Source: Candidatus Sulfotelmatobacter sp. (GTDB lineage Bacteria; Acidobacteriota; Terriglobia; Terriglobales; Acidobacteriaceae). From it: a stretch of DNA of 64,000 nt. Shown here piece by piece: positions 5,751 to 21,770 of the stretch (positions within the stretch are counted from its first letter, which is position 1; each line of letters opens with the position of its first letter). Made by a program: the position numbers and the translations under genes. The stretch spans positions 2,324 through 66,323 of the forward strand of contig JBAVQD010000048.1 in the NCBI GenBank assembly GCA_049693675.1, in the 5' to 3' direction. The notes under the pieces were generated by a model. That model was not told the origin of the DNA. It saw only the letters and a list, made by a program, of their open reading frames with translations, and made no database searches.

Positions 5751-5796
5751 GGACAGCCGCCCCTTCGACAAGCTCAGGGCAGGCTCTCGGCTGTCC
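5751..5796. repeat. REP-like palindromic element (ggacagccg ... cggctgtcc)
   Basis: 9-bp perfect inverted repeat with a 28-nt spacer in the kinase/Sel1 intergenic region. Further small hairpins follow up to about 5850. Confidence 0.6.
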
Positions 5797-6816: not shown

Positions 6817-6867
6817 TCTGCGCCTGCGGCCGCACGCGCGAAACTCCAAACTGGTCGTCCTCGGCAG

Positions 6868-7812: not shown

Positions 7813-8112
7813 CGCCCCAGGCCTCCATCATAGCCAACTTTCCGGCTCTTCGTTGGTAACCAGAGTAACGAAGGATTTCGCCTTCGATAATTTCAGGATT
7901 GCAATTTACAAACAATCGGACTACCAGAGAAGCGACGTCCTGGTTTTTATTTTCGTTGGAAAACCTCCTCGATGCCGTAACCCGTTGTCGCGGCTATATT
8001 TCTGAACCATCACGGGTGATAACCAACCGAATACCTCCACCCAACGGCGCGATTGCTTTATAGGCGCAGTTCTGCGGTAATCCAAAGCGGAAGATGTTTC
8101 TCTAAACTTTCT

Positions 8113-8472
8113 ATGAACACCGTATTGCCGCAAAAAATGGAATCTGTTGAAGACTCTGCCAGTCGGCCTGGGACGCAGCTTTTCGTGCGCTCGCAATCCG
8201 TAGTTTCACGCCGCGTCGCCGGAGAAACTTTGATCGTTCCCGTGCGCGGCAAAGTCGGAGATCTGGCGTCGATCTACAGCTTCAACTCAACCGGCTCTTT
8301 GATCTGGCAATCGCTCGAATTGCCCAAGTGCTTTGAGGAACTCGTCAGCGCTGTCGAAAGCGAATATGCGGTCGAGCGCGATCAGGCGGAGCAGGACGTG
8401 AAACAGTTCTTGCAAGACATGCTGGCGGCAGATTTGGTGCAAATTCGCGATTCACTGCAAATGGTGGGATAA
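8113..8472 (+). CDS. PqqD-family peptide chaperone (RRE domain protein)
   Basis: VSRRVAGETLIVPVRGKVGDLASIYSFNSTGSLIWQSL...ELVSAVESEYAVERDQAEQDVKQFLQDMLAADLV is a typical PqqD/RRE pattern. Start moved to the ATG at 8113. Confidence 0.85.
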   Translation: MNTVLPQKMESVEDSASRPGTQLFVRSQSVVSRRVAGETLIVPVRGKVGDLASIYSFNSTGSLIWQSLELPKCFEELVSAVESEYAVERDQAEQDVKQFLQDMLAADLVQIRDSLQMVG

Positions 8473-8484: not shown

Positions 8485-9744
8485 ATGGAACAACTGAGTT
8501 ACGGAGCATTCAGCGCCGACCTGCACCAGCGTCAATCCGGTAAGCGCGCGCCCACGCAGGTTTCCATCGAAGTCACCCGCCGCTGTCCGCTGGAATGCCA
8601 GCACTGCTACAACAATCTTCCCATGGGCGATCAATCCGCCCGCAGCCGTGAAATGACCACCGAAGAACATTTCAAAATGCTCGACGAGTTAGTCGAGATG
8701 GGTTGCTTCTGGCTCCTCTACACCGGCGGCGAAATTTTCGCCCGCAAGGACTTTCTCGAGATCTACACCTACGCCAAGAAAAAAGGCTTCCTGATCACTC
8801 TCTTCACCAACGGCACGATGATCACGGAAAAGATCGCAGACTATCTGGTCGAATGGCCGCCCTTCGCCATCGAGATCACGCTCTACGGCCGCACCCGCGA
8901 AATCTACGAAGCCCTCACAATGATCCCCGGCTCCTACGACCGCTGCCTGCGCGGTATCAAACTCCTGCGCGAAAGAGGGTTGCCGCTCAAGCTGAAAACG
9001 GTCGCGACCAGCATCAACAAGCATGAAGTTGTCTCGATGAGGCAGTTCGCCGAAGAAGAACTGGGAGTCGAGTTCAAGATCGACGGACAGATTAATCCCC
9101 GTATCGACTGCTCCCAAAGTCCGCTCGCCGTGCGGCTCACACCCGAAGAGGTTGTCGCACTTGACCTGCATTCTCCGAAAGGAATAAGCGAATACCGGAG
9201 GTTAGCAAAACACGATTTGGAAAAGCCGCCGAACCTTACTCAAATCGACACTCAGTATTTTTGCGGGGGCGGTATGGAGTCATTTGCCGTCAACGCATAT
9301 GGGGAGATGGGGATTTGTATCCTCTCGCAACAAGAAACCTTCGATGTCCGGCAGGACGGTCTGAGAAAGTCATGGGACGATTCTCTGTATTCGTTGCGAA
9401 TGCGCAAACGCACGCGCCTGACAAAATGCATCGAGTGTCGAATCCAATCCTTGTGCGCAATGTGTCCTGCTAATGGCGAAATGGAAAATGGCGATCGCGA
9501 AACTCCGGTAGCGTTTCTTTGCAACGTTGCTCATCTGCGGGCCGTCGCGGTAGGAGTCGATATCCCTGCCCACGGAGAGTGCGAATTCTGCGCCGGAGGA
9601 AGTGAGCACGACTCGCTGCTCGAATCAGCACGCCGCATAGCGACTCGGGAAATCGATGTAGAAAGTTGGACGGCGCCGCATCAGCTTTTACCGATATTAA
9701 ACAACGCGTCTGCCGGCGGATGCGGAAATTGCGCCGGCCACTAG
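8485..9744 (+). CDS. radical SAM / SPASM-domain peptide-modifying enzyme
   Basis: CPLECQHCYN (CxxxCxxC) near the N-terminus and a GGE motif (YTGGEIF). C-terminal auxiliary-cluster pattern CGGG...GEMGIC...CIECRIQSLCAMC...FLC. Starts 12 nt after the PqqD stop. Confidence 0.9.
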   Translation: MEQLSYGAFSADLHQRQSGKRAPTQVSIEVTRRCPLECQHCYNNLPMGDQSARSREMTTEEHFKMLDELVEMGCFWLLYTGGEIFARKDFLEIYTYAKKKGFLITLFTNGTMITEKIADYLVEWPPFAIEITLYGRTREIYEALTMIPGSYDRCLRGIKLLRERGLPLKLKTVATSINKHEVVSMRQFAEEELGVEFKIDGQINPRIDCSQSPLAVRLTPEEVVALDLHSPKGISEYRRLAKHDLEKPPNLTQIDTQYFCGGGMESFAVNAYGEMGICILSQQETFDVRQDGLRKSWDDSLYSLRMRKRTRLTKCIECRIQSLCAMCPANGEMENGDRETPVAFLCNVAHLRAVAVGVDIPAHGECEFCAGGSEHDSLLESARRIATREIDVESWTAPHQLLPILNNASAGGCGNCAGH

Positions 9745-9807
9745 CTAAGGATTTGAACGTCGGGTGCGAACAGGCGCCGAAAGAAGATGCATAAGCGTGG
9801 GGGCTGA

Positions 9808-9978
9808 ATGAAGGATGAATTGAGGCACGCCGAGGGCAAAAAGTCCTACGAGCCACCGCTCCTTAAGACGATCAATTTGCGACCTGAGGAAGCGGTTCTG
9901 GGACACTGCAAAACTTCCACCGGCGGCGGGATCCAGATTGGATGTCAGTTTTTTACTTGCAGTTCCGTCGGATCCTAG
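9808..9978 (+). CDS. candidate RiPP precursor peptide, 56 aa (absent from the ORF track, which lists only ORFs >=60 aa)
   Basis: Hand translation: MKDELRHAEGKKSYEPPLLKTINLRPEEAVLGHCKTSTGGGIQIGCQFFTCSSVGS*. Charged leader followed by a small-residue, 3-Cys core with a C-terminal Ser. A purine-rich tggggg lies 5 nt upstream of the ATG. It fills the gap between the rSAM and kinase genes. Confidence 0.6.
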   Translation: MKDELRHAEGKKSYEPPLLKTINLRPEEAVLGHCKTSTGGGIQIGCQFFTCSSVGS

Positions 9979-10030
9979 AAGTCCGGCACGGAGCATACGG
10001 AAATAATCGCCGGTATCGGAAGGTTAGCAG

Positions 10031-11008
10031 ATGGAAGCCCTCAAGACATCCTGCGCAATTCATACGAGTGGTTTTTCCGTGGGTGGGGTCTCGGTGCAAT
10101 TATTCGGGAATTGCTTCGATGATGTTTCCTTGGTGGAGTCGCTTCTTCCTTTTCGCGGGGACGAGAACAATTCCGACATTCATCTTTCGGTTGAGTGGGC
10201 CGGCAGTTTTACTCCGCCCCGTAGCCGTCCGCTTTTCGACTCGGGAACGACTTGGAGGCTCTACGAAGACGGAGCCGGATTTCAGTTTGACTTCAATGCT
10301 CCCGCTTTTGGCGAGCGCCCGTACAAGCGGCTTTTGGCCGACAACCTCTTTCGATCGTGCACGCTGCAGATGAGCGAGGATTCTTTTCGCGGATCTCAGT
10401 ACACGCCAGCGCCGCTGGACTACCCCCTCGACGAACTCCTCATCATGCACCGCCTCACCCAGGAGCCGGCTATCGAGCTCCACGGAGTCGGCATCGTCGG
10501 CCCCGACGGCGCAAACAACTTATTCGTCGGTCACTCCGGAGCAGGGAAGAGCACCACCGCTCGCCTCTGGACCTCGCTCCACACGGTAGAGATTCTGAGC
10601 GACGATCGCATCATCGTTCGTGAACACCCTGTTCGCGAACACTCGGCTGCTGAAGATAAAATCCGCAACGAAAAATCTTACGAAGGTAACCTCTCTGCCG
10701 GCCCTGCTCAGATCTACATGTACGGCACGCCGTGGCATGGCGACGCGCATTTTGCCCTTCCCCAATGTGCCCCGCTGAAAAGAATTTTTGTTCTCGAACA
10801 CGGCCACGGTAACGTTCTTACACACCTCACGCGGAGCCAGATGGTCGCCGAACTTTTCGCACGCGCCTTCGTCCCGTTCCACCGCCACGAGTATGTGGAC
10901 CACGCCCTGAGCTTCCTGGAACGCGTTGCCGATTCCGTTCCTTGTTATCGGTATTCTTTCGAGCCCGACGAGCGCGCCGTAGAAAAAATCCTCCAATTCA
11001 ATGACTGA
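10031..11008 (+). CDS. HPr-kinase-like P-loop kinase (RiPP-associated HprK homologue)
   Basis: LHGVGIVGPDGANNLFVGHSGAGKSTTA Walker A in an HprK-C-like context, followed by LSDDRIIV. 8-nt overlap (ATGACTGA) with the next CDS. Confidence 0.8.
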   Translation: MEALKTSCAIHTSGFSVGGVSVQLFGNCFDDVSLVESLLPFRGDENNSDIHLSVEWAGSFTPPRSRPLFDSGTTWRLYEDGAGFQFDFNAPAFGERPYKRLLADNLFRSCTLQMSEDSFRGSQYTPAPLDYPLDELLIMHRLTQEPAIELHGVGIVGPDGANNLFVGHSGAGKSTTARLWTSLHTVEILSDDRIIVREHPVREHSAAEDKIRNEKSYEGNLSAGPAQIYMYGTPWHGDAHFALPQCAPLKRIFVLEHGHGNVLTHLTRSQMVAELFARAFVPFHRHEYVDHALSFLERVADSVPCYRYSFEPDERAVEKILQFND

Positions 11009-14000
11009 AAGTGAGTCCGATTCACAGAGGTTCGAGACGCTCAGCCGCGAGCTTCTGAACAAGGGATTGACCGTGCGCTTCCAGGCGCGCGGCGCCAGCA
11101 TGTCCCCCTGTATCCGCGACGGCGAGATTGTCCATGTTACCGCCGTAATCGTGAGCAAATTACGTAAGGGCGATATTGTACTTACGAAAGGTCATAGCGG
11201 ATTCCGGGTTCACCGCCTCGTGCTTATCGATCAGGATAAGAATCTTTTCATGACTCGAGGCGATTGCGGACGGCAAGACGATCCTCCGGTGCACGCCGAC
11301 CAAATCCTGGGCATTGTTCTCGCCAAAGAAGTGAGGCTTGGAACGAAAATCGTGACGGCGAACTTGAACGGTTTCACCGGCAAATTGTTGCAGGGTGCTG
11401 TGCGCGCGCAATATCTCGCGGGCAAGCTCCTTCGCATCGCAACTTCGCGCTCCTCAAATATCGCGCTGGCTTTGCTCTTGCTGTTGTCGCTCGTCTCCTA
11501 CTCGCGCGCCCAGGTCGTAATTGACGCCACTACGTCGACCTCAAGCTCTCTGAATGCTCGTGGTGCGCAGGCCGTCACGTTTACGCATACAACAGCCGCC
11601 TCCACAACTGGACTTTTGATCGTCGGCGTGGCCATGGACACGGTCAATGCGACTACAACGACGGTGAGTTCGGTCACCTACAACGCCACCGGGCTGACTT
11701 TTCTGGGCGCGCAGGACGACGCTGCCAAAAGCCGCCGGGTCGAGATGTGGTACCTGCTCAGCCCAGCCGCCGGAACTAACAATGTTGTCGTAACGGTTAA
11801 CATACCCGGAGCTGTAAATGAGCGTGTGGGAGTCGTCGCAGGTGCAGTTACTTTCACCGGAGTGAATCAAGCCGTTCCCGTCGGTCCATTCGTATCCGCG
11901 AGTGGCGCAGCCGGAACAGCTTCTTCTGACACCGTACCCAGCGTTCTCAACGGCATGGTCATGGATACTCTCGCAGTCGCAGAAAATGTGACCGTTACAG
12001 TCCCCGGCACTCAAACCTCTCTCTGGAACGTAAGATCAGGCGCTGTTCTGGCCGGCGACGTGAGGAGCACCGGAAGCACTGCCCCAGGTTCCCCCAGCGT
12101 TACCATGACTGAGACTTTCAGTGCCGCTTCCAATTGGGCGCAAGGCGCGGTATCCATCAACCCCGCGGCCCAGGTGATCGTTGACGCCGCTACGTCAATA
12201 GAGCAGGCAATCAACGCTTCCGGAATACAAACAGTAACCTTCGCTCATACCACGGCCACAACCACCACCGGGCTCTTGATCGTCGGCGTAGCCATGAACA
12301 TTGTGAACGCGCCCACCACAACTGTAAGCTCGGTCACGTACAACGGCACCGCACTCCATTTTCTGGGAGCGCACAATGATGCAGGCAACACTCGGCGCGT
12401 CGAAATGTGGTACCTGCTCAGTCCTGCGGCGGGAACTTTTAACATCGTGGTTTCCGTCGACATACCCGGAGGCACCGCCGAACAACTTGGCGTGGTGGCA
12501 GGCGCCGTAACCTTTACCGGAGTCGACCAAACCGTTCCACTAAGTCCCTTTGTCTCCGCAAACGGCGCAAACGGCGCAAACTCGCAGCTCGATGTTCCCA
12601 GCGTGATTAACGGAATGATTCTGGATACGCTGTCGGTCGCCGGAAATCAAGCCGTTACCGTTCCCGGTCCTCAGGTCTCAGAGTGGAATACAAATACCGG
12701 CGCCGGTGCGACGGATGTTCGCAGTTCCGGCAGTGCTCGCACTGGAGCGCCCAGCGTCCCTATATCCGAAACTTTCAGCGGCACCTCGAACTGGTCGCTG
12801 GGAGCCGTGTCCATCAATCCCTCCACCGCCGATATTGCCGTTACCACTAGTGTGGGCAGTGCAGTTTTTCTCGGACAAAATACAACCTACAACATCACCG
12901 TCTCCAACAACGGATATTCAGCCGCGAACTCAGTGACGCTCACGGACACTCTGGCTTCTGGAATGACACTGGTCTCTGTCACTCCCAGCGCGGGAACCAC
13001 CTGCACCGGATCCGGCCCCATTACTTGTACTCTTCCCACTCCGTTTGCCAGTGGGGCCACCGCTACCATCGCGGTGGTGGAAACTGCCAGCGCCACCGGC
13101 TCATTTGCCAATACCGCCACCATCACGGATTCCGGAAGCCCGCCCGATCCCAACACTGGAAACAATTCCTACACAGCCGTCGCCACTGTGCAGTCAATCT
13201 CATGCGCCAGTGTGTCGCAGGCGACAACTGGAACTAATCTCTCCGGAATCTTGAACACTTACTATCCCGGAACCACCAGCGTAGCCGCTGGAGCCACCTC
13301 CATCCCTGTAGGTGCGGCAACCGGCGCTGGGAGCGCCATTGCCGCCGGCAATCTTCTGCTGATTATCCAGATGCAGGATGCCAGCATTAACGATGCCAAT
13401 ACCATCGCTTACGGCAACGGCAGCAGCGGCCAGGGATTCACCAACCTGAACAGCGCAGGCGATTACGAGTTCGTCACCGCGCAAAATGCAGTTCCCGCAA
13501 CTGGAGGATCAGTAACCATCACGGGAGCCGGCACCGGCGGTGGAACGGTTTTCGCTTATCACTCCGCCGCTGTCTCGGCAAACGCGGGCCAAAGCAAGTA
13601 TCAGGTAATCGTGGTGCCGCAATATTCCACCGCATCATTCAACGCAACCACTCCGCCTACTGCACTCGCGTGGAATGGTTCAACCGGTGGCGTGCTCGCG
13701 CTCGATACTTCCGGCACTTTGACTCTGAGCGGAGCCACTATCGCCGTGGATGGTCTCGGCTTCCGCGGTGGGGCGGGAATGCAATTGACTGGCGGAGCCG
13801 GTGCCGCTACCGATTATGAAGCGCCTGCTCCCGCAACCTACACCGGGGCCGCTGGCGGCGAAGCCGGTTACGATGCCAACAAGGGCGAAGGTATTGCCGG
13901 CACACCTGCGTGGGTAGAATCGGGCACAACTTTTCTGCAAACGAATACCGGCTATCCCAGCGGCACTGCGGGCACTGACGGCAGCATGGCTCGCGGAGCG

Positions 14001-17000
14001 CCCGGCAATGCGGGCGCCGGAGGTACCGACTCCGATCCCGTCAACAATGATCAGAACGCCGGCGGCGGAGGCGGTGCCAACGGCGGTGCCGGAGGCTTTG
14101 GTGGTGACTCGTGGAACACAAATCTTAGTGTAGGCGGCGAGGGTGGTACAGTTTTTCCCGCAACTATCAATCGCGTCGCCATGGGCGGCGGCGGCGGCGC
14201 GGGAACGCGCAACAATTCCGATGGAGATAATCGGGCTAGTGGCGGCGCAACTGGGGGCGGCATCATCATCATTCGTACCTACGGCCTCAGTGGGACAGGA
14301 ACTCTAACCGCTAACGGAATCTCCGCCTACAACGGAACTCTCAATGATGCCGGCGGCGGCGGTGGCGCCGGCGGAAGTATTGTGGTTCTTTCCGCCAACG
14401 GAGGCGAGAGCGGACTCACGCTGCAAGCCAACGGTGGAAACGGCGGCAACGCCTGGGAGATTGAGCCCTATACCCTCGGCAATCGGCACGGCCCTGGCGG
14501 CGGCGGTGGCGGCGGTGTCGTTCTTATCTCTGGCACCCCTGCAAGTATTAGCCTGAGTGGCGGAGCCAGCGGCCTCACCGAAAATCCCGGCGTCCCCTAC
14601 GGGTCCACCGCCGGCGCGGCCGGCACAAGCGTGACCAACGCTTCCATCACCCAAACCTCCGGCACACAGTCCGGCGCGCAATGCACTCCCGATATGACGC
14701 TGGGCAAGAGCCATGTCGGCAACTTCACCCGCGGATCAACCGCCAGCTACACCATCCCGGTCGAAAACTTGAGCCCATACGGCCCGACCAACGGCACCGT
14801 AACCGTGAACGATACGATGCCGGTCGGCCTCACTCCTACCAGCGCCACCGGTACCGGATGGTCGTGCTCGATTGCCTCCCAGACCGTGAGCTGCGTTACC
14901 TCCGCAGTTCTGCCGGCAAACAGTTTTTACCCTTCGCTAACCATCAACGCGAATGTCTTGCAGACCGCTCCTTCCGTCGAAACCAACACTGCGTTAGTAA
15001 GTGGCGGTGGTGAAGTGAATCTGGCGAATGACAGCGCTACCGACGTAGCCAACGTAATCTCAACCGCCGATCTCAGCATCACCAATGCGGCATCGCCTGA
15101 TCCGGTCGTGGCAGGCGGCAACATTACTTATACGCAGGTAGTCACCAATAACGGTCCCAGCGCCGCCGACAACGCAACCATGGTGGAAGCCGTTCCCAAC
15201 AACACTACATTTGTTTCGATGGCAGCACCCGCTGGGTGGAGTTGCACCACGCCAGCCGTTGGCAGCACCGGCAACGTAGTTTGCACCAATTTGAATATGG
15301 CGGGCAGTACCGCAGCCACTTTCGCACTAGTCGTTAAAGTAAACACCGGCACTGCGAACGGCACTGTCATCACCGACACCGCGAAAGTAAGTTCGTCAGT
15401 CAGCGATCCAAATTCGGCGAACAACACCGCCTCGGCTTCCACCATCGTCGGTTCCTCTGCCGGAGCCGACTTAGTCGTCACCAATGCCGCTTCACCAAAT
15501 GGCGTCGCGCCCGGCGGCAACATTACTTATACGCAGGTAGTCACAAATGTCGGTTCCCTTACGGCCACAGCTGCAACTTTCACTGAGTCAACCTCGCCGG
15601 TGGCCGATGTAACCTTCGTTTCCGTCTCGGCCGCGGCTGCTCCAGGTTGGACTTGCACTGCTCCGCCCGTAAGCTGCACCAATCCCAGCGTAGCCGCAGG
15701 CGCAACGGGTACCATCACCGCCATATACAAGGTGAATGCCGCCACGCCAATCGGGACGCTCATCACCAACACCGCGACAGTCAACGCCGCCAACCAAACC
15801 TCCGGTCCCAACACCGCGATCGCAAGCGACACCGTAACCGCAACGACTTCGCAATCCGATCTTGGTCTCACCACCGCTGCAACCCCGCTCTCGGTTTTTG
15901 CCGGCAATGATATTACTTATCTCCAGACCATAACCAATAGCGGCCCCGCCGCGGCCACGAGCGTGAGCTTCCTGGAGGCGGTACCGACCAACACTACTTT
16001 CGCCTCCGTCTCGGCTCCTGCTGGTTGGACGTGCACAACGCCCGCCGTAGGCGCAACCGGAAATATAACCTGCACCGATCCCACTTTGGCGGCCACGACC
16101 TCGGCGTCAATCATCGTCGTTGTCAACGTTCCGTCGAGTGTTACCGCTGCCGCGATCGCAGCGACGTCCTCGGTTTCCGCGACCAACGCTCTCACCATCA
16201 CAACCAACACCAGCACCCCTGTTACAACCGCTTGCGATTTGGCGGTCAGCAACAGCGGCACACCAAGCCCGGTCGCCGCCGGCGGCACCATTACTTACAC
16301 TCAGGTTGTAACGAACACTGGTCCGAGCAACTGCGCCAATCTGACTTTCAATGAAGCGATCCCGACTAACACCACCTTTACATCGTATGGCGGAGCACCC
16401 GCGGGCTGGACTTGCACATCCTTCGCCACCGGTTGCACCAATCCCAGCTTCGCCCCCGGATCGATCAGTACCTTCACCGTGGTCGTGACCGTAAACGCGG
16501 GCACCGCCGCGGGAACCATCATTACCGACACAGACACGGTTACCACCACAACCCGCGATACCAACACGAGCAATAATTCCGCAACCGTTAACATACCGGT
16601 GGCGAGCGCTACTCAAGCCGACCTCAGTGTGTCGAATTCCGCCAGTCCGAACCCCGTCTCGGCCGGGAACAACATCACTTACGCGCAGACCGTAGTGAAT
16701 ACCGGACCTGCGAGCGCCAGCACAATTTCGCTCGCCGAAAGCCTTCCCGCGAATACCACCGCAGTGTCGCTGACCGGACCGGCCGGCTGGACTTGCTCGG
16801 TGGGAACGCTGACCTGCACCATCTCCACTCTGGCCGTCACAACCGCGAACTTCACATTCGTCGTAAAAGTGAACAGCAACGCAACCCCCGGGTCCACGAT
16901 CACGCAAACTGATACCGTCACTTCCGCCAATGATCCGAATCCCGGCAATAACAGCGCCTCTGCAAGCGTTCTCGTAGCCGGCTCGGCTGATCTGTCGGTT

Positions 17001-20000
17001 ACGAACACCGCGAGCCCCGTACCCGTAGTAGCAAACAACAACATTACTTATACGCAAGTTGTCACCAACGCCGGACCAAGCATAGCCACCGCTGCCAGCT
17101 TTACCGAGACTACCCCGGCGAATACGACATTCTTTTCCATCGGCACGCTGCCTGCCGGATGGTCCTGCAGCACCCCCGCAGTAGGAAGCGCGGGGACCAT
17201 CAACTGCACCAATCCCAGCTTTGCGCCAGGTTCAGCCAGCTTTACCGTTGCGCTTAAAGTTACTGCCGGCACCGCTGCCGGAACGGCGATCAACGATATC
17301 GCTGCTGTGAGCTCATCAACGTCCGATCCGAACTCGGCCAACAACACGGCAATTGCCACCGATGTCGTCGCTCTCGCAACTCAGGCCGACTTAATCGTAA
17401 CCAATAGTGCGACGCCAACCTCCGTCGCCGCGGGAAGTAACATCACTTATACGCAGAGCGTCACCAATAATGGTCCGGCTGCGGCAACAACCGTAAGCTT
17501 TACTCAAAGCACGCCGCCGAATACCACTTTCCAATCCATCACAACTCCGGCCGGCTGGACTTGCACCACCCCCGCCGTCGGAGCTACAGGCACGATTACT
17601 TGTACGATTGCCACGCTGGCGCTCAATGCAAGCGCTAGCTTCACGTTAGTGTTGCAGGTAAATGCTGCAACCGCGTCCGGCACAAACATTGCGGAGGCCG
17701 CAACCGCTACTGCGTCGAACATCGTGCCCGGCCTTACCAGCAACACCGCCGTGGCAACGGTTGTCGTGGCCAATCCGAATAGTGCCAGTCTTGCGATCGT
17801 GAAGACAGCTATGCCCAGCCCTACGGTTGCCGAGGGCGACACGCTCACTTACACGATTGGCATCACCAATAACGGTCCATCGTCCGCAACGAATGTGACC
17901 GTTACCGATCCACTGCCAGCGGATGTTACTTATCTTTCTTTGACCACCAGTGCTGGCACCTGCTCGGAAGCTGGTGGAACTGTAACCTGTTTGCTGGGAA
18001 CGATCGCCAACGGCGGCACAGCTACGATAACTATCCTCACCCTCGCTGGCGCACCGGGAATCGCTACAAACACAGCCAGCGTGGTTGCGGGCCAGATGAC
18101 CACTCCGAATACATCGACACAGGTCGAGACCATCACTGCCGCCACCAGCATCAAGCTGGAATCGTTCGTAGCCCAGACCGGCCAGGATAAAACCGGGGCA
18201 CACCGCGTCGTGCTCCTCTGGAAAACAGGCACAGAAGTGCACAACCTTGGCTTCAACATTTATCGCGAACAAGCAGGCGAACGCGTTCGCCTGAATTCTT
18301 CGCTGATCGCCGGCTCGGCGCTGCTCATGAACGGTGCCCTCCCCAAACACTCCGGCCGTACTTACAGCTGGATCGATTCCTCCGCGAATGCCGGCAGTGC
18401 TCCCTACTGGCTCGAAGACGTGGATGTGAACGGAACCCGTATCCTTCACGGCCCAGTTTCCGCGACCGCATCCAGCAACTCCCAGGTCGCGAGCAACGCC
18501 AACGCAACTCCTAGCGTAATGTTGAATCATCTAAACCAGAGCCAGCCCGCTGCGTCTGTTGATGGGTTCAGTCATCGCGTCGAAGATACTTCGCCGAATT
18601 CTTCTCCTACGGCCACGCAACAGCAGAAACAGTTCGCCCTTGCGGCACACTCCGCCATCAAGATTTACGTAAAGCACGAAGGCTGGTATTGCGTGACGCA
18701 ACCGCAACTTATCGCCGCCGGCCTCAGCCCTAATGTCGATCCAGCTTATCTCCATCTTTACGCCGAGGCCGTCGAGCAGCCCATCGCGATCACCGGAACC
18801 ACCGCCGGTGTCCGCGGCTTTGGTCCGCAAGCGGCAATTTATTTCTATGGCACAGGTATCGACACACAATATTCCGGCACCAGAGTTTATTTCCTCGTTA
18901 CACAGGATTCGAAAGGGGCGCGAGTTCACAACTTGCCCGTATCCACGGGCTCGAACCAGCCTCCCGCAAGTTTCCCCTTTACCGTGGAACTCGCTCCTCA
19001 TACAACCTATTACTCGGCCCTGACCACCGCGAACGGCTACAACTTCTTCGGACCTCTCGTCTCCTCCACTGCCGTCGATGAGACCATTCAGGTTCCCCAT
19101 CTTGATTCCACATCCACAGAATCCGCAAAGTTAGATGTGATTCTGCAAGGCGTTATTCTCGGCGTTCCTCATGACGTGACCGTTACGCTGAACGGCACCT
19201 CGCTCGGCGACGTCACCTTCACCGGGGAAGCAAAAGGTACGCTCGACGTAACTTTGCCGCTAGGTGTTTTACAGGAAGGCGCCAACACCGTCACTCTCAC
19301 GTCGCAGAACGGTGAATACGATTACAGCCTGCTGCAATCGATCCGCATCACCTACCCGCACACTTATGCCGCCGACTCCAACGAATTGACGTTTACTGCC
19401 CGCCCCGGCGAAGAACTCAGTCTCACTGGATTCACGCAATCATCGGTCGCCGTGGTCGACATTACCGACCCCAACCAACCCGTACAACTTACGCCCCAGG
19501 TTACGACCGATCCGAAGTCGGAAACTTACACAGCTGCGATACAGGTGCCGTGGTCCACCACCAATCCATCCACCCCGGCCCAGCACACGCTAATGGCTGT
19601 GGTTGGGACCACCGTCGCTTCTCCAGCCGGAATCCGTCAGAATCATCCTTCACGCTGGTATAGCGCTCAATCCGGCAGCGAGATTGTGATGGTCACGTCC
19701 GACGAGTTCTCCGGCGCTCTTGCCCCGCTGAAGCGCGCGCATGAAGCGTTAGGCAAGTCATCCGCACTCGTGTTGGTCGACGATCTCTACGACGAATTTA
19801 CTTTTGGCCAGCACAATCCGCTCGCCATCCGCAGCTTCCTGCAAACCGCCGTCACGGCTTGGCACACTACGCCCCATTACCTCTTACTCAATGGCCGCGC
19901 ATCATTTGATCCACGTAATTATCTCGGTTTTGGACATCTCGATTTCGTCCCCACGCAGATCATCGCCACCAGCGGCCTGATGACCGCCTCTGACGGATGG

Positions 20001-20729
20001 TTCTCGGATTTCAACGACACTGGGATTCCGACCATCGCCACCGGCCGCCTGCCCGTGAGCACCCCCGCCGAAGCCCAGTTGGTGGCGGGAAAGATCGCCA
20101 TCTACGAAGGGCAGTCCACCGACGGTCCCTGGACGTCGCAAGCTCTCGTGGTCGCGGATACGAACGACACCGAAAACTTCACCAAAGACAGCCAGCTTGC
20201 CCAGGCGCAGCTACCTTCTTCCGTGCAAGTGACGGATGTCTTCCTCACCACCACATCCGTGCCCGACGCTCAGCAAACGATTCTCAACTCCATCAACTCT
20301 GGCGAGTTGTTGGTGAATTATTCAGGCCATGGCTCGGAAGATGAATGGTCGGGAGAAAATCTTTTCAACAGCACCGAGGCGAGCACTTTGACCAACGGCT
20401 CCTCCTTGCCCGTCTTTCTCATCATGGATTGCTTGAATGGATTTTTTCAGGATGTTTACGAAGAACCGCTGGCAGTCTCTCTGATGCTTGCACCCGATGG
20501 CGGCGCCGTCGCGGTTCTCGCTTCCAGCGGGCTCAACCAGGCTCCGCCGCAAACCACTCTCGACAAGCTAGTCGTACAATCCGCCATGGGCCCATCGCGC
20601 TTGCCGTTAGGAGATGCGATCATCAAGGCGAAATCGGGCATCACCGACCTCGCCGTGCGCAAAACCTACAACCTGCTGGGAGATCCGGTGATGCAGATCA
20701 AGCCTCCGGTCGCGACTAAGAAGCACTAA
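11001..20729 (+). CDS. giant (3242 aa) multidomain membrane-anchored surface protein
   Basis: Domain order: S26B-like peptidase domain, TM segment, 2x 220-aa duplicated module, DUF11 repeats, Gly-rich beta-helix-like region, DUF11 array, C25 (gingipain-like) peptidase domain. Single uninterrupted frame. N-terminal motifs GASMSP, GDIVL...RVHRLV, TRGDCGRQDDPPV. TM segment IALALLLLLSLVSY. DUF11 signature ADLxxTNxASP...GxNITYTQxVTNxGP...NTTF...GWxCT...DPNxxNN. C-terminal motifs NYSGHGSEDEW and FLIMDCLNGFF (C25 His/Cys dyad). Confidence 0.85.
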   Translation: MTESESDSQRFETLSRELLNKGLTVRFQARGASMSPCIRDGEIVHVTAVIVSKLRKGDIVLTKGHSGFRVHRLVLIDQDKNLFMTRGDCGRQDDPPVHADQILGIVLAKEVRLGTKIVTANLNGFTGKLLQGAVRAQYLAGKLLRIATSRSSNIALALLLLLSLVSYSRAQVVIDATTSTSSSLNARGAQAVTFTHTTAASTTGLLIVGVAMDTVNATTTTVSSVTYNATGLTFLGAQDDAAKSRRVEMWYLLSPAAGTNNVVVTVNIPGAVNERVGVVAGAVTFTGVNQAVPVGPFVSASGAAGTASSDTVPSVLNGMVMDTLAVAENVTVTVPGTQTSLWNVRSGAVLAGDVRSTGSTAPGSPSVTMTETFSAASNWAQGAVSINPAAQVIVDAATSIEQAINASGIQTVTFAHTTATTTTGLLIVGVAMNIVNAPTTTVSSVTYNGTALHFLGAHNDAGNTRRVEMWYLLSPAAGTFNIVVSVDIPGGTAEQLGVVAGAVTFTGVDQTVPLSPFVSANGANGANSQLDVPSVINGMILDTLSVAGNQAVTVPGPQVSEWNTNTGAGATDVRSSGSARTGAPSVPISETFSGTSNWSLGAVSINPSTADIAVTTSVGSAVFLGQNTTYNITVSNNGYSAANSVTLTDTLASGMTLVSVTPSAGTTCTGSGPITCTLPTPFASGATATIAVVETASATGSFANTATITDSGSPPDPNTGNNSYTAVATVQSISCASVSQATTGTNLSGILNTYYPGTTSVAAGATSIPVGAATGAGSAIAAGNLLLIIQMQDASINDANTIAYGNGSSGQGFTNLNSAGDYEFVTAQNAVPATGGSVTITGAGTGGGTVFAYHSAAVSANAGQSKYQVIVVPQYSTASFNATTPPTALAWNGSTGGVLALDTSGTLTLSGATIAVDGLGFRGGAGMQLTGGAGAATDYEAPAPATYTGAAGGEAGYDANKGEGIAGTPAWVESGTTFLQTNTGYPSGTAGTDGSMARGAPGNAGAGGTDSDPVNNDQNAGGGGGANGGAGGFGGDSWNTNLSVGGEGGTVFPATINRVAMGGGGGAGTRNNSDGDNRASGGATGGGIIIIRTYGLSGTGTLTANGISAYNGTLNDAGGGGGAGGSIVVLSANGGESGLTLQANGGNGGNAWEIEPYTLGNRHGPGGGGGGGVVLISGTPASISLSGGASGLTENPGVPYGSTAGAAGTSVTNASITQTSGTQSGAQCTPDMTLGKSHVGNFTRGSTASYTIPVENLSPYGPTNGTVTVNDTMPVGLTPTSATGTGWSCSIASQTVSCVTSAVLPANSFYPSLTINANVLQTAPSVETNTALVSGGGEVNLANDSATDVANVISTADLSITNAASPDPVVAGGNITYTQVVTNNGPSAADNATMVEAVPNNTTFVSMAAPAGWSCTTPAVGSTGNVVCTNLNMAGSTAATFALVVKVNTGTANGTVITDTAKVSSSVSDPNSANNTASASTIVGSSAGADLVVTNAASPNGVAPGGNITYTQVVTNVGSLTATAATFTESTSPVADVTFVSVSAAAAPGWTCTAPPVSCTNPSVAAGATGTITAIYKVNAATPIGTLITNTATVNAANQTSGPNTAIASDTVTATTSQSDLGLTTAATPLSVFAGNDITYLQTITNSGPAAATSVSFLEAVPTNTTFASVSAPAGWTCTTPAVGATGNITCTDPTLAATTSASIIVVVNVPSSVTAAAIAATSSVSATNALTITTNTSTPVTTACDLAVSNSGTPSPVAAGGTITYTQVVTNTGPSNCANLTFNEAIPTNTTFTSYGGAPAGWTCTSFATGCTNPSFAPGSISTFTVVVTVNAGTAAGTIITDTDTVTTTTRDTNTSNNSATVNIPVASATQADLSVSNSASPNPVSAGNNITYAQTVVNTGPASASTISLAESLPANTTAVSLTGPAGWTCSVGTLTCTISTLAVTTANFTFVVKVNSNATPGSTITQTDTVTSANDPNPGNNSASASVLVAGSADLSVTNTASPVPVVANNNITYTQVVTNAGPSIATAASFTETTPANTTFFSIGTLPAGWSCSTPAVGSAGTINCTNPSFAPGSASFTVALKVTAGTAAGTAINDIAAVSSSTSDPNSANNTAIATDVVALATQADLIVTNSATPTSVAAGSNITYTQSVTNNGPAAATTVSFTQSTPPNTTFQSITTPAGWTCTTPAVGATGTITCTIATLALNASASFTLVLQVNAATASGTNIAEAATATASNIVPGLTSNTAVATVVVANPNSASLAIVKTAMPSPTVAEGDTLTYTIGITNNGPSSATNVTVTDPLPADVTYLSLTTSAGTCSEAGGTVTCLLGTIANGGTATITILTLAGAPGIATNTASVVAGQMTTPNTSTQVETITAATSIKLESFVAQTGQDKTGAHRVVLLWKTGTEVHNLGFNIYREQAGERVRLNSSLIAGSALLMNGALPKHSGRTYSWIDSSANAGSAPYWLEDVDVNGTRILHGPVSATASSNSQVASNANATPSVMLNHLNQSQPAASVDGFSHRVEDTSPNSSPTATQQQKQFALAAHSAIKIYVKHEGWYCVTQPQLIAAGLSPNVDPAYLHLYAEAVEQPIAITGTTAGVRGFGPQAAIYFYGTGIDTQYSGTRVYFLVTQDSKGARVHNLPVSTGSNQPPASFPFTVELAPHTTYYSALTTANGYNFFGPLVSSTAVDETIQVPHLDSTSTESAKLDVILQGVILGVPHDVTVTLNGTSLGDVTFTGEAKGTLDVTLPLGVLQEGANTVTLTSQNGEYDYSLLQSIRITYPHTYAADSNELTFTARPGEELSLTGFTQSSVAVVDITDPNQPVQLTPQVTTDPKSETYTAAIQVPWSTTNPSTPAQHTLMAVVGTTVASPAGIRQNHPSRWYSAQSGSEIVMVTSDEFSGALAPLKRAHEALGKSSALVLVDDLYDEFTFGQHNPLAIRSFLQTAVTAWHTTPHYLLLNGRASFDPRNYLGFGHLDFVPTQIIATSGLMTASDGWFSDFNDTGIPTIATGRLPVSTPAEAQLVAGKIAIYEGQSTDGPWTSQALVVADTNDTENFTKDSQLAQAQLPSSVQVTDVFLTTTSVPDAQQTILNSINSGELLVNYSGHGSEDEWSGENLFNSTEASTLTNGSSLPVFLIMDCLNGFFQDVYEEPLAVSLMLAPDGGAVAVLASSGLNQAPPQTTLDKLVVQSAMGPSRLPLGDAIIKAKSGITDLAVRKTYNLLGDPVMQIKPPVATKKH
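11511..12830 (+). repeat. intragenic tandem duplication, 2 x 660 bp (220-aa module)
   Basis: QVVIDATTS...GAVSINPAA is followed directly by QVIVDAATS...GAVSINPS. The two copies align along their whole length by eye. Confidence 0.85.
14690..18130 (+). repeat. intragenic array of about 9 DUF11-type repeats (about 385-400 bp period); one more copy lies at 12836..13200
   Basis: Recurrent ADL(S/V/I)xTN starts at about 15065, 15467, 15855, 16232, 16617, 16985, 17386 and 17785. aacattacttatacgca recurs near-identically. Confidence 0.8.
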
Positions 20730-20741: not shown

Positions 20742-21770
20742 TTAAGCCCGCGCCATATCAGCAACCACAGCCGCTCGCCGCAGAGGTTCGGCGATGGCCT
20801 TCATCACTTTCTCAAATCCCGCGAAGTCGAGCGATTGCGCTCCATCGGAGAGCGCCCGCTCCGGGCAGGGATGCACTTCTATAATCAATCCATCGGCTCC
20901 CACCGCCACCGCTGCCCGCGAAACTGCGGCGATCAGACTCTGTTTTCCAGTTCCATGCGAAGGATCGGCGATCACCGGCAAATGCGAAAGATCGCGAGCC
21001 AGCGCCACCGCTGCCAAATCGAAGGTGTTCCGCATCTCGGTTTCGAACGTCTTAATGCCGCGTTCGCACAGCACGACTTCACCGTTTCCTCCCGAAAGCA
21101 AATATTCCGCCGCCAGCAGCCACTCCTTTACCGTGGCCGACGGACCGCGCTTCAACAGGATCGGCCTCTTAACTGTGGCCAGACGCCGCAACAGCGCGAA
21201 GTTCTGCATGTTCCTCGCTCCTACCTGCAACATATCCACGTACTCGCAGATCGTGTCCACATCCTCCGTGCTCATCACTTCCGTGACCACAGGAAGCCCA
21301 GACTCCTCACGCGCTTCGCGGAGAATCTTCAGCGCCTCTACCCCCAATCCCTGAAAGTCGTAGGGCGATGTTCTTGGCTTGTAAGCCCCGCCGCGCAGCA
21401 TCGTCGCTCCCGCCCGCTTCACCGCATGCGCCGTATCCAATAACTGCTCGCGAGACTCCACCGAGCATGGCCCCGCAATAATCACCACGCCCGGGCCGCC
21501 AATGCTCACCCCGCCCACATTCACCACAGTGCGCTCCGGTTTTACCTGCCGGCTCACCAGCTTGAAAGGCTGCGCAATGGCAACCACATTCTCTACTCCG
21601 CCCGCCACCGCCAGCGCCTCGATTTCGTGCCGGCGTCCATTCCCCACCGCGGCCACGATCGTTCGCTCCACGCCGCGCGTGACGTGCGGCTGGTAGCCTG
21701 CCTCGCGAATGCGCTCGATCACGTGAGCAATCTGCTGCTCGGTGGCTTTCTCTGACATGTTCACAATCAT
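20742..21770 (-). CDS. aroF: 3-deoxy-7-phosphoheptulonate (DAHP) synthase, type I-beta with N-terminal ferredoxin-like regulatory domain
   Basis: [59 protein letters not shown] upstream. Confidence 0.9.

Follow-up and report, generated by a model that had tools for sequence, protein, structure and literature searches.

Does the giant open reading frame that closes a peptide-modification cassette in the window analysed here (64,000 nucleotides of a 'Candidatus Sulfotelmatobacter' contig) encode a single protein with a peptidase at each end, and what would such a protein do next to a peptide cassette? The preliminary description, made from the sequence alone, read the frame as a fusion of a leader-peptidase-like domain to a giant surface adhesin/protease, considered this architecture undescribed and left a sequencing or assembly error as the alternative. 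The comparative data presented below support the fusion reading and refute such an error. Our literature search for the two-protease fusion architecture found no description of it, consistent with the claim of novelty; such proteins are nevertheless plentiful in public databases under generic names ('C25 family cysteine peptidase', 'TIGR01451 repeat protein').

The peptide cassette and its last gene

The giant gene and the genes upstream of it are the following.

8053..8472, + strand: PqqD-like peptide-binding (RRE) protein (Pfam PqqD, 55 bits, aa 61-129)
8485..9744, + strand: radical SAM enzyme, its C-terminal half Cys-rich and SPASM-like (Pfam Radical_SAM, 74.7 bits)
9808..9978, + strand: 56-aa candidate precursor peptide (alignment of 79 orthologues)
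10031..11008, + strand: ScmC-family P-loop protein, Walker A GHSGAGKST (orthologues with a precomputed PF27840 ScmC match)
11001..20729, + strand: giant ORF of 3242 aa, ATG start, read as bitopic (cytoplasmic peptidase, internal signal peptide, exported giant protein)

The gene order is PqqD, radical SAM, ~57-aa peptide and ScmC-like, with the giant gene always last, and a PqqD-like gene lies upstream in every surveyed locus. For the PqqD-like protein of the window, translation may in fact begin further downstream than the TTG at 8053. The radical SAM gene shows the highest conservation of the cassette (median identity 80%), and its best NCBIfam matches are rSAM/SPASM peptide maturases, each under its equivalog cutoff. 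The candidate precursor carries an invariant leader, ...LRPEEAVLG(H)CK, then a core that is hypervariable and holds two further Cys, and an invariant C-terminal Gly-Ser, defining a family of ~57 aa with three Cys and the pattern ...PEEAVLGxCK...GS that is also present in distant loci (L088, L089, L170-L173). The protein encoded immediately upstream of the giant gene was initially called a kinase; it gives weak P-loop matches only (Pfam, PDB), and the evidence goes no further than a ScmC-family P-loop protein, with homologues in 5963 clusters. We found no exporter gene in the cassette. Altogether, this radical SAM peptide-modification cassette is very common and undescribed, and the giant gene is a fixed part of it in soil Acidobacteria.

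As first described, the giant frame begins 8 nt ahead of the upstream stop: ATGACTGA at 11001-11008 overlaps the ATG of the giant gene (11001) with the stop (11008) of the 325-aa ORF 10031..11008. This 8-nt overlap is kept in 86 of 152 loci, and the ScmC gene and the giant gene are translationally coupled.

A soluble peptidase followed by an internal signal peptide

11001..11366, + strand: peptidase domain of the S24/S26 fold, aa 1-122, catalytic set of S26B type (profile, phmmer and structure matches)
11097-11099, 11211-11213, 11262-11264 and 11280-11282, + strand: catalytic residues Ser33, His71, Asp88 and Asp94
11373..11450, + strand: long conserved helix, aa 125-150, part of the peptidase domain (AF2 helix, pLDDT ~90)
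11421..11510, + strand: internal Sec-type signal peptide with a basic n-region, an h-region (aa 153-167) and a Ser-Arg-Ala c-region
between 11510 and 11511, + strand: predicted cleavage site Ala170/Gln171, AxA/Q pattern

A soluble peptidase of the S24/S26 fold, bearing the S26B-type Ser/His/Asp/Asp set, makes up the first ~150 residues. Residues 9-112 match Peptidase_S24 weakly (17.5 bits, GA 23.3) and the TIGR02228 archaeal-type signal peptidase I with 34.8 bits (cutoff 51.85), and the domain thus stays under the curated thresholds of both the S24 and the S26 models. The phmmer alignment to human SEC11A/C matches Ser33, His71, Asp88 and Asp94 to the catalytic residues, and all four are invariant in 90 homologues. 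The AlphaFold model of the domain (pLDDT 84.7) retrieved the LexA C-domain, SpsB, E. coli SPase I, SEC11C and SipA (4n31) by Foldseek, and the helix of aa 125-150 is also present in stand-alone S24 genes. Median identities reach 63% for this domain, compared with 59% for ScmC and 61% for the module of the exported part. From its catalytic residues, its fold model and its conservation, the N-terminal peptidase looks active. No hydrophobic segment or export signal precedes it, and the S26B-like domain proposed at the outset, with no preceding signal or TM segment, is therefore confirmed by profiles, phmmer, Foldseek and hydrophobicity.

The whole protein contains one TM-like segment, at aa ~153-168. 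The single hydrophobic segment of the preliminary description is correct, but its reading as a plain TM helix is not, since it has every hallmark of a Sec-type signal peptide, AxA/Q site included. Over 79 loci, a net charge of median +5 precedes an uncharged run of median 20 residues, position -1 is Ala in 67, Gly in 9 and Ser in 3, and position +1 is Gln in 79 of 79. The basic linker, hydrophobic segment and conserved AxA/Q site thus constitute an internal Sec signal peptide, ~150-190 aa from the start of the protein, with the cleavage site ~20-60 residues downstream of the peptidase domain.

A putatively exported adhesin-like protein ending in a C25 peptidase

11517..12167, + strand: Module A, aa 173-389, beta-rich, of no known family; one part of the conserved core of the exported partner
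12177..12824, + strand: Module B, aa 393-608, duplicate of Module A (66% identical)
12843..13157, + strand: DUF11/CLIPPER repeat 1, aa 615-719 (Pfam DUF11)
13230..14543, + strand: Gly-rich AgmC_N-like region, aa 744-1181 (NF047640)
14703..18113, + strand: nine tandem DUF11/CLIPPER repeats, aa 1235-2371, a fibrillar-adhesin-type stalk
18138..18470, + strand: ~110-aa conserved domain after the repeats, aa 2380-2490 (...WKTGxExxNLGFNxYR...YWLEDVDxNG...)
18639..19685, + strand: PorU-like region ahead of the catalytic domain, aa 2547-2895 (NF033707 T9SS_sortase)
19686..20696, + strand: Peptidase C25 catalytic domain, aa 2896-3232 (Pfam, 234.7 bits, E 2.6e-69)
20328-20330 and 20430-20432, + strand: C25 dyad, His3110 (NYSGHG) and Cys3144 (MDCLNG)

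The ~3070 residues that follow the signal peptide are a putatively exported adhesin-like protein with a PorU-like C25 peptidase at its end, and domain searches found again every domain listed for the 3242-aa protein at first inspection, including the two duplicated modules, the one plus nine DUF11 repeats and the Gly-rich region between them. Module A gave no significant fold match with its poor AF2 model (pLDDT 55.6); it is also present in L172 and L171. Its duplication occurs only in L012 and P0001, which are close relatives of the window, and in a few others, P0166 among them. Pfam DUF11 scores 442.6 bits over 10 stretches, and such CLIPPER/DUF11 units are isopeptide-type stalk domains of the fibrillar-adhesin type (bioRxiv 10.1101/2025.04.25.650565). 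The Gly-rich region (24% Gly in aa 744-1181, 33% in aa 1000-1181) matches AgmC_N with 108 bits (cutoff 275). The ~110-aa domain after the repeats had no match in a Pfam search and is kept in all C25 partners, including those of L172, L173 and L171.

At the C-terminus, NF033707 aligns aa 2547-3236 to model positions 2-735 with 218 bits, under its cutoff of 420. The assignment as a gingipain-like C25 domain holds, as His3110 and Cys3144 align on the catalytic motifs of RgpB (1cvr) and PorU (6za2), with which the giant protein has the C25 His/Cys motifs in common. The protein terminates 10 residues past the C25 domain, and no recognisable outer-membrane anchor or secretion signal was found at its C-terminus.

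The fusion is a conserved gene

Of 80 species-representative genomes, 77 carry the fused frame. An independent survey, which took ScmC and not S24 as its seed, found it in ~51 of the 56 metagenome loci that could be resolved; a separate S26 gene is thus not the consistent state among orthologues. We recovered 48 single ORFs running from S24 to C25, 23 of them full-length in short-read assemblies, and the exact protein of the window, as well as near-identical copies of 3242 and 3246 aa, lies on independent contigs. The end-to-end architecture is retained at S24-domain identities of 34-42% (P0159, P0166, P0213), fused frames at this level of identity also occur in unrelated genomic surroundings, and the junction itself (helix, basic linker, h-region and AxA/Q) is conserved as protein down to 34% S24 identity (L088).

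That the S26-like and giant genes are really separate, and that the window records an artefact or a recent stop-codon loss, is hardly conceivable in view of these counts. This reading could draw on the separate genes of related loci (L003/L004, L005/L006, L148 and L101) and on two close relatives with long-read assemblies (L001, L002) in which the region falls into several ORFs. However, both long-read loci are full of frameshifts, which break even the GASMSP motif and the rSAM gene, and stitching them restores the fusion, while in L005 the giant gene opens with a second copy of the C-terminal helix of S24, showing that an insertion split a fused gene there. Altogether, the ORF represents a single, real gene that 'Ca. 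Sulfotelmatobacter'-type Acidobacteriaceae have conserved. Some 5-10% of loci are split and one (L169) kept the giant gene while losing the S24 domain, showing that physical fusion is not essential.

Separate partners in distant lineages

In more distant lineages of the Acidobacteriota, an equivalent cassette is flanked by an S24-like gene and, separately, by the gene of a secreted C25 protein, and the window protein thus joins two parts of a six-component system in a Rosetta-stone fusion. The secreted C25 gene lies downstream of the cassette in L172 and L171 and upstream in L173, where its product bears an ordinary signal peptide of its own and S24 comes after ScmC as elsewhere. The C25 partners of L172 and L173 have a wholly different stalk, without DUF11 or AgmC_N parts. 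An S24-like domain follows ScmC in 73 of 74 loci; L110, L134 and L151 have lost the giant gene but retain this domain intact, and the L170 copy is joined to a cytoplasmic NTP_transf_5 domain instead, beside a member of the same peptide family. The coupling of the giant protein to the peptide cassette, as originally proposed, is supported by these separate genes and by the giant gene moving as a unit with the cassette, a unit that in L088 and L089 occupies unrelated neighbourhoods.

Proposed function and competing readings

We propose, as the reasonably probable overall explanation, a conserved bitopic fusion of a cytoplasmic leader peptidase and an outside C25 enzyme that is part of the peptide cassette. 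Following the positive-inside rule, the peptidase domain would be cytoplasmic and membrane-tethered, and the signal-like segment would drive Sec export of the remaining ~3070 residues. The host's own signal peptidase I is likely to cleave behind Ala170, and this would yield an ~18-kDa tail-anchored peptidase and a freed giant protein starting at Gln171.

A different role for the N-terminal peptidase, as a dedicated processing or assembly factor of the giant protein or as an S24-type self-cleaver releasing it from the signal peptide, seems unlikely. Analogues would be SipW for TasA and the signal-peptidase homologue SipA for streptococcal pili; fold and catalytic set are of the signal-peptidase type, with SipA among the fold matches, the conserved AxA/Q site lies close behind the domain, the isopeptide-type stalk and sortase-like C25 of the partner recall pilus loci, and no other arrangement is as common as the fusion with the giant protein. 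Nevertheless, a single N-in/C-out segment puts the active site and AxA/Q on opposite sides of the membrane, and the S24-like domain stays with the cassette when the giant gene is deleted, when its partner is NTP_transf_5 or when the C25 protein is encoded upstream with its own signal peptide. Moreover, only 32 residues precede the catalytic Ser33, so that no autocleavage site of the Ala-Gly type can be seen ahead of it.

It is quite improbable that the ORF gives two products, the giant protein arising mainly from an internal start near the signal peptide (e.g., the GTG of codon 134, nt 11400) that would render this signal peptide a normal N-terminal one, with the full-length fusion minor or not made. 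The window does hold in-frame GTG/TTG at codons 118, 122, 129, 130 and 134, a start-like codon with a loose SD-like motif occurs in the linker of 55 of 79 loci (by a permissive test run without a shuffled control), and both parts are workable as separate polypeptides in the split lineages. Yet no codon position is conserved, an in-frame ATG occurs in the linker of 39 of 79 loci and comes with an SD-like motif in only 13 of 79, and the junction frame is open in ~90% of loci over deep divergence, which would be needless if the downstream part were translated separately. We likewise give little credit to an adhesin/C25 protein functionally unrelated to the cassette, whose adjacency and fusion would be accidents kept by synteny in one clade. 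All loci stem from metagenomes or MAGs of one phylum (Acidobacteriota), so that part of the co-occurrence is shared ancestry; DAHP synthase and other flanks are also syntenic in many close relatives, and the cassette offers no exporter to link a cytoplasmic peptide with an extracellular enzyme. Against this, the unit stands between entirely different flanks in L088, L089, L172 and L173, the C25 association survives a changed gene order (L173) and a changed stalk (L172, L173), and fusion and translational coupling are kept over deep divergence.

Returning to the leader peptidase/C25 fusion that we favor, the cytoplasmic peptidase most likely takes the leader off the rSAM-modified peptide: enzymes of the signal-peptidase fold prefer a small residue at -1 and an aliphatic one at -3, and a leader site ...AVLG/xCK would fit this preference. 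The C25 domain would work outside, its target being either the peptide once exported or substrates at the surface. Such a fusion may, therefore, couple the maturation or export of a modified peptide to a surface structure in these Acidobacteria.

Gene layout and domains of the giant protein

The giant gene is one unbroken ORF with an ATG start, and it overlaps by 8 nt the 325-aa ORF upstream, ATGACTGA at 11001-11008 holding both the start of the former and the stop of the latter. Upstream of it lie all four genes of the cassette, which encode a PqqD-like protein, a radical SAM (rSAM) enzyme, a candidate precursor peptide, and a P-loop protein of the ScmC family. The giant protein matches exactly the NCBI entry MGB8580085.1 ("C25 family cysteine peptidase," Ca. 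Sulfotelmatobacter sp.), and other contigs carry 3242- and 3246-aa copies at an identity of at least 90%.

Table. The cassette, the giant gene, and their neighbors in the window. Neighbor assignments rest on synteny with the related locus L001.
4023-5717 (-), Ser/Thr protein kinase
5902-6816 (+), Sel1-repeat protein
6868-7812 (-), periplasmic-binding-protein-like gene
8053-8472, PqqD-like protein
8485-9744, radical SAM enzyme; best matches are rSAM/SPASM peptide maturases, all under equivalog cutoffs
9808-9978 (+), 56-aa ORF, candidate precursor peptide
10031-11008 (+), P-loop protein; precomputed Pfam ScmC (PF27840) match in orthologues
11001-20729 (+), giant gene, 3242 aa
20742-21770 (-), DAHP-synthase-like gene, downstream

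Domain searches recovered the parts that the preliminary description had read from the sequence alone, i.e., an N-terminal S26-like domain, DUF11 repeats, a Gly-rich region, and a C-terminal gingipain-type C25 peptidase domain.

Table. Domains and repeats of the giant protein.
N terminus, Peptidase_S24 match (Pfam), 17.5 bits, under the PF00717 gathering threshold of 23.3
N terminus, archaeal-type signal peptidase I match (TIGR02228), 34.8 bits, under 51.85
aa 173-389 and 393-608, two modules, 66% identical (repeat analysis)
aa 615-719, one DUF11 repeat, and aa 1235-2371, nine more (boundaries from repeat analysis)
DUF11 repeats, ten stretches (Pfam), 442.6 bits
aa 744-1181, AgmC_N-like Gly-rich region (NF047640), 108.3 bits, cutoff 275
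aa 2547-3236, PorU-like alignment (NCBIfam NF033707), 218.3 bits, cutoff 420
aa 2896-3232, Peptidase_C25 (Pfam PF01364), E 2.6e-69, 234.7 bits versus a threshold of 23

A soluble peptidase domain with signal peptidase-like catalytic residues

The N-terminal domain (aa 1-122, here the S24 domain) is left unnamed by current annotation pipelines. Peptidase_S24 was the sole Pfam peptidase model to detect it, and some homologues pass the threshold of that model, such as the related protein P0250 at 25.4 bits. A phmmer search against the PDB aligned aa 31-98 with human SEC11A/C, placing Ser33 (GASMSP), His71 (VHRL), and Asp88/Asp94 (RGDCGRQDD) on the S26B catalytic motifs of these proteins, and two alignments, one of 14 and one of 90 homologues, showed no variation at these four positions. 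The AlphaFold model of aa 1-183 was confident (pLDDT 84.7), with an N-terminal helix, a beta core at aa 25-121, a long helix at aa 125-150, and a hydrophobic helix at aa 152-166; its top Foldseek matches (probability 0.87 to 1.00) were LexA C-domains, SpsB, Escherichia coli signal peptidase I, SEC11C, and SipA. The modeled fold is that of clan SF (LexA/signal peptidase I-like). Since the catalytic residues align and the predicted fold is that of clan SF, the earlier label "S26B-like" is right for the catalytic chemistry, but the domain has no N-terminal membrane anchor, the defining feature of signal peptidases, and falls short of both curated thresholds. As also claimed earlier, no hydrophobic segment precedes the domain, and stand-alone homologues of it are devoid of any transmembrane (TM) segment.

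With the S26B signal peptidases (Sec11, archaeal signal peptidase I, and Bacillus SipW), the S24 domain has in common the clan SF fold, the catalytic Ser in GxSMxP, the His in VHR, and the RGD...DD acidic pair. It differs from them in falling below the TIGR02228 and Pfam thresholds, in having an additional helix at the N terminus and a long one at the C terminus, in being embedded in a peptide-modification cassette, and in its predicted cytoplasmic location, whereas the anchor of S26B enzymes sets their catalytic domain on the periplasmic or luminal side. sipW is encoded together with a specific secreted partner, tasA/tapA, and the peptidase of the window is likewise encoded with a specific secreted partner. 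The self-cleaving S24 proteins (LexA, UmuD, and lambda cI) are soluble and cytoplasmic, as predicted for the S24 domain, and provide its best structural matches, the LexA C-domain first. However, the general base of the S24 domain is His71 and not Lys (VHRL versus VKRL), the test for a Ser/Lys dyad being negative, and there is no DNA-binding domain and, before the catalytic Ser, no Ala-Gly cleavage loop. Autocleavage of the LexA type on the N-terminal side of this Ser was rejected because only 32 residues precede Ser33.

An internal signal peptide follows the peptidase

The preliminary description had placed a single TM helix behind the peptidase domain. The giant protein does hold one TM-like segment, the remaining hydrophobic windows being beta-strands within DUF11 and C25, but over 79 orthologous junctions this segment takes the pattern of a Sec signal peptide. 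It lies 167 to 190 residues into the protein, with a median net charge of +5 in the 20 residues ahead of the hydrophobic run and an uncharged run of a median 20 residues. Ala, Gly, or Ser occupies position -1 and Gln position +1 in 79/79 loci; V-x-V-D comes next, and position -3 is mostly Ser, Leu, or Ala. These features are those of a Sec signal peptide lying within the protein. The positive-inside rule predicts a cytoplasmic location for the peptidase domain and export of the remainder. A periplasmic peptidase domain acting as a signal peptidase in cis was rejected on topology, because it would need export of a signal-less 150-aa domain or else a cytoplasmic disulfide- and isopeptide-type adhesin part.

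The fusion is genuine in related genomes

The preliminary description had left open whether the peptidase was a separate gene joined to the giant gene by a sequencing or assembly error. The first syntenic loci found, L001 and L002, at first looked like separate S24 genes. Frame-by-frame translation showed the GASMSP motif itself to be split over frames in L001 and the rSAM gene to be split in L002; once stitched, both read as fusions. They were discarded as evidence against the fusion because these splits mark them as indel-ridden long-read assemblies. Many frameshifts occur at this locus in the "contig_NNNNN" long-read loci (L001, L002, L007, and others), in which gene callers fragment the giant gene and thus give fragments (P0018 and P0005) that mimic stand-alone S24 genes.

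A first survey, in which one genome per species was scanned with an S24-domain alignment, gave 80 loci from Acidobacteriaceae and "Ca. Sulfotelmatobacter" MAGs and a few with improbable bin labels. The S24 frame stays open through the helix, linker, signal-like segment, and module in 77 of the 80. A single S24-to-C25 ORF was found in 48 of these (23 short-read and 25 long-read assemblies), 9 are fused as far as the contig end, and 20 show later frameshifts or stops, 17 of them in long-read assemblies. Two further contigs run out ahead of the module, and only L030 (identical with L002) stops before it. Some contigs that carry an Acidobacteria-type cassette (L056, L062, L065, L077, L083, and that of P0279) go under Binatia, Verrucomicrobiia, Dormibacterota, or Patescibacteria in their MAG records, which probably reflects mis-binning.

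As the first survey was seeded on S24, a second one of metagenome contigs was seeded on the ScmC-like gene. S24 followed ScmC in 73/74 loci with enough sequence, and ~51 of 56 junctions were fused and 5 unfused. Moreover, a profile search covering 1.84 billion representative proteins returned many long proteins with an S24-like domain at residues 1 to 200, among which P0159, P0166, and P0213 (2112 to 2335 aa) have the S24...DUF11...C25 layout of the window protein, with an S24-domain identity to it of 42% for P0166 (locus L089) and 34% for P0213 (locus L088). This orthologue search, which the preliminary description had asked for, establishes the fusion as genuine; an assembly artifact is refuted by the fused majorities of both surveys, including the 23 full-length ORFs from short reads.

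Separate or decayed arrangements do occur. In L003/L004 and L148, a stand-alone S24 gene of 145 to 178 aa and a short gap precede a giant gene with its own start. In L005/L006, a 316-aa gene on the opposite strand, 10496-11446 (-), lies between the two, and the C-terminal helix of S24 (VQARFxxxxGWxLRxAARxQ) is repeated at the N terminus of the giant gene, i.e., on both sides of the insertion, which is the footprint of a split fused gene. The inserted gene encodes a secreted repeat protein, beta-propeller-like by eye. The giant gene is lost in L110 and L134, so that the usual downstream DAHP synthase adjoins S24, and C25 is reduced to its last ~25 codons in L151; the cassette and S24 are intact in all three. 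Conversely, L169 keeps a degenerate in-frame S24 remnant before an intact signal peptide and giant gene. Given the fused majority and these variants, the fusion is common in this clade, probably ancestral, and not obligatory.

The peptide cassette

The 56-aa ORF is conserved in 79 loci. Its leader, Y-x-P-P-x-L-x-x-I-S-L-R-P-E-E-A-V-L-G-(H)-C-K (...ISLRPEEAVLGHCK), is invariant and is followed by a hypervariable core with two more Cys, making three in all, and by a C-terminal Gly-Ser in 78/79. The same leader, three-Cys, and Gly-Ser pattern occurs in distant cassettes. The peptide has no Pfam or NCBIfam family, and a literature search for its motif gave nothing. The 8-nt overlap of the ScmC stop with the start of the giant gene recurs in 86/152 loci. 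In the distant members L088 and L089, the five-gene unit sits in entirely different neighborhoods (Tricorn/AI-2E in one and Rieske/isc in the other) with the same peptide pattern and the same overlap.

Examined as a candidate HPr-kinase-like (HprK/P) peptide kinase, the 10031-11008 protein resembles ABC ATPases and AAA_33 at the Walker-A level only (Pfam and PDB). The earlier label "kinase" was not adopted because these searches gave P-loop similarity only. That the ScmC-like protein phosphorylates the C-terminal Ser of the peptide is a guess for which the invariance of this Ser is suggestive. ScmC was detected through the precomputed PF27840 match in orthologues, often weak or faint. Soil metagenomes contain a very large number of ScmC-like proteins (5963 clusters at E<=1e-3), and the matches listed in the homologue search comprised only close relatives and no distant contexts.

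The co-encoded PqqD-like RRE, rSAM maturase, and short precursor with a conserved leader make this an rSAM/SPASM RiPP cassette, although every cassette protein is under its NCBIfam equivalog threshold, e.g., ScmE at 90 versus 400 and ScmD at 19.9 versus 100. What it has in common with the SynChlorMet (SCM) and ranthipeptide/sactipeptide-type cassettes is a PqqD-like protein, an rSAM enzyme whose C-terminal half is rich in Cys, a member of the ScmC family, and a short precursor that contains Cys and has a leader that is conserved and a core that varies. Unlike these, it has a precursor ending in an invariant Gly-Ser (78/79), an S24/S26-like peptidase and a secreted C25 protein as obligate companions, one rSAM gene where SCM has two, and no exporter; no peptide exporter was apparent among the window neighbors at 4023-7812 and 20742-21770.

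Both proteases travel with the cassette

Outside the fused loci, P0250 (L170, 2219-3883 (+)) joins an S24-like domain to a cytoplasmic NTP_transf_5 domain (194 bits) and has no TM segment. Its gene comes directly after ScmC and a 57-aa member of the same peptide family (...LRPEEAVLGNCK...GT), which ends in Gly-Thr and not Gly-Ser. In other Acidobacteriota, a stand-alone subfamily of 140 to 190 aa goes under the source name "signal peptidase I." The gene order in L172 (Pyrinomonadaceae) is PqqD, rSAM, 59-aa peptide, ScmC, and S24 (148 aa, no TM), downstream of which is a separate secreted protein with its own signal peptide, module, post-repeat domain, PorU-like region, and C-terminal C25. An apparent 1.35-kb gap in this locus (9447-10800) encodes an N-terminal stretch of the C25 protein that was left uncalled, with a signal peptide and a lamin-tail-like (FIELYN) segment, and a separate NTP_transf_5 gene, 4504-5688 (-), lies beside the cassette. 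In L173, the cassette is preceded by the gene of a secreted 1010-aa C25 protein, and S24 (189 aa) keeps its place behind ScmC; L171 similarly has a separate S24-like gene and a secreted C25 protein with its cassette. Whatever it is fused to, the S24-like domain stays with the peptide/ScmC module, and a secreted C25 protein accompanies the cassette irrespective of gene order. The system therefore has six recurrent components, the last two of which are fused in the window ORF.

The predicted exported part

The C25 domain, which passes the Pfam threshold, has the two dyad motifs named in the preliminary description. Its catalytic residues His3110 (NYSGHGSE) and Cys3144 (MDCLNG) are present and align with the NYTGHGSE and VACVNG motifs of RgpB and likewise with PorU. 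The C-terminal ~690 residues match the first two-thirds of PorU, the type IX secretion (T9SS) sortase, including the catalytic domain with the His/Cys dyad conserved in PorU and gingipains, but score well under equivalog cutoffs (NF033707, 218.3 versus 420; PorU2 model, 161.3 versus 450). Moreover, unlike PorU and gingipains, the giant protein has no T9SS C-terminal sorting domain, because it terminates 10 residues past C25; Pfam and NCBIfam searches of it gave no match to sorting-domain models. Its host is an acidobacterium, whereas T9SS is known from Bacteroidota (PMC5445135).

DUF11 has been renamed CLIPPER and structurally characterized (bioRxiv 10.1101/2025.04.25.650565). With ten tandem Ig-like repeats as a stalk behind a signal-peptide-like segment and a terminal non-repeat domain, the giant protein resembles the CLIPPER/DUF11 fibrillar adhesins. 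It departs from these adhesins in that its signal peptide is internal, after a 150-aa enzyme predicted to be cytoplasmic, and its distal domain is a protease. No recognized anchoring domain is among its Pfam/NCBIfam matches. The Gly-rich region resembles that of Myxococcus AgmC, an adventurous gliding motility protein, with a score under the cutoff (108.3 versus 275).

Most orthologues have a single copy of the module, and its tandem duplication (217 aa, 66% identity; 11517-12824 (+)) was seen in the window, its closest relatives (e.g., L012), and a few others such as P0166. The AF2 model of the module, from a 5-sequence alignment, had a pLDDT of 55.6, and its Foldseek matches were generic (beta-sandwich/CBM-like, all E > 0.01). 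A post-repeat domain of ~110 aa, 18138-18470 (+), with the motif WKTGxExxNLGFNxYR...YWLEDVDxNGxxxxHGP and no Pfam match, is conserved among all C25 partners, those encoded as short separate proteins in L172, L173, and L171 included. The conserved core of the exported partner consists of the module, this post-repeat domain, C25, and the PorU-like region before it, while the DUF11 and AgmC_N-like parts are a variable stalk.

A model for the system and its alternatives

The observation is solid and its comparative support strong; the function proposed here is a prediction. At the sequence level, we can build on the architecture and its conservation, the intact catalytic sets of both proteases, and their membership in the cassette. 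We propose that the giant ORF is translated by coupling to ScmC and that its N-terminal peptidase folds in the cytoplasm. The internal signal peptide would target the nascent chain to Sec, resulting in export of the remainder, and signal peptidase I would cut, probably after Ala170, giving a tail-anchored peptidase and a free giant protein starting from Gln171. The peptidase would then be the best candidate for leader removal from the rSAM-modified peptide, because ...A-V-L-G↓x-C-K offers a small residue at -1 and an aliphatic one at -3, and the C25 domain would work outside the cytoplasm. Extended to all six components, the model becomes speculative and, taken whole, unlikely to be right in full: a previously unrecognized peptide system of a dominant soil phylum, in which a cytoplasmic signal-peptidase-like enzyme at the membrane frees an rSAM-crosslinked, hypervariable three-Cys peptide from its leader, while outside a PorU-like C25 transpeptidase on a giant, putatively isopeptide-stabilized stalk processes, cyclizes, or covalently attaches the peptide, which could be sortase-style, at the C-terminal Gly-Ser or after the invariant Lys. 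The fusion in Terriglobia would couple both proteolytic steps across the inner membrane.

Separate translation of the giant protein from an internal start would give it an ordinary N-terminal signal peptide, but no start codon is conserved in position over the 79 junctions, which makes this option improbable; a loose test for SD-like motifs, which had no control, was not relied on. By analogy with SipW/TasA or SipA/pilus systems, it is attractive to think that the peptidase processes the giant protein itself. The predicted topology is against such a role, as is the persistence of S24 in variants without a giant gene or with another partner, and we disfavor it. A mere synteny of the cassette and the giant gene is likewise disfavored by their association in different neighborhoods and gene orders. 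For a peptidase that removes the leader of the peptide, the closest functional analogy would be the PCAT exporters (PCATs/AMS), in which an N-terminal C39 leader peptidase is fused to the membrane component of a peptidase-containing ABC exporter. Both have a leader-peptidase-type domain, cytoplasmic in PCATs and predicted to be so here, at the N terminus of a membrane-spanning protein of a peptide-maturation operon. However, the peptidase of the window is a Ser/His enzyme of clan SF, whereas that of PCATs is a Cys peptidase (C39). Moreover, a protein that crosses the membrane once cannot form a channel, an ATPase is lacking, and the fused partner is an exported adhesin/protease.

By their sequences, the parts belong to known superfamilies, namely, clan SF peptidases, C25, CLIPPER adhesins (bioRxiv 10.1101/2025.04.25.650565), and rSAM/PqqD cassettes, none at a named-family equivalog threshold. 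The preliminary description had considered the architecture undescribed, and our search of the full-text literature agreed: it returned nothing on the cassette or the architecture, no soluble S26B-like peptidase ahead of an internal signal peptide, no fusion of such a peptidase to a giant C25-tipped adhesin, and no obligate link of the two to an rSAM peptide cassette.

Acidobacteriota rank among the most abundant bacteria of soil, and to our knowledge almost nothing is known of their peptide natural products and surface structures, nor do we know of either cassette-linked protease family in RiPP biosynthesis. Metagenomes of soil and peat contain the cassette extremely often, its ScmC-like gene by itself giving thousands of 90%-identity clusters, and a hypervariable core such as that of its peptide marks molecules that interact with other organisms or the environment. 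The fusion provides direct Rosetta-stone evidence that a signal-peptidase-like enzyme of the cytoplasm works in one pathway with a giant C25 protein that is secreted. Confirmation would give a new, soluble S26B-like type of leader peptidase, an example of a folded cytoplasmic enzyme ahead of an internal Sec signal peptide, and a function for the many giant proteins of Acidobacteria annotated as "C25 family cysteine peptidase / TIGR01451 repeat."
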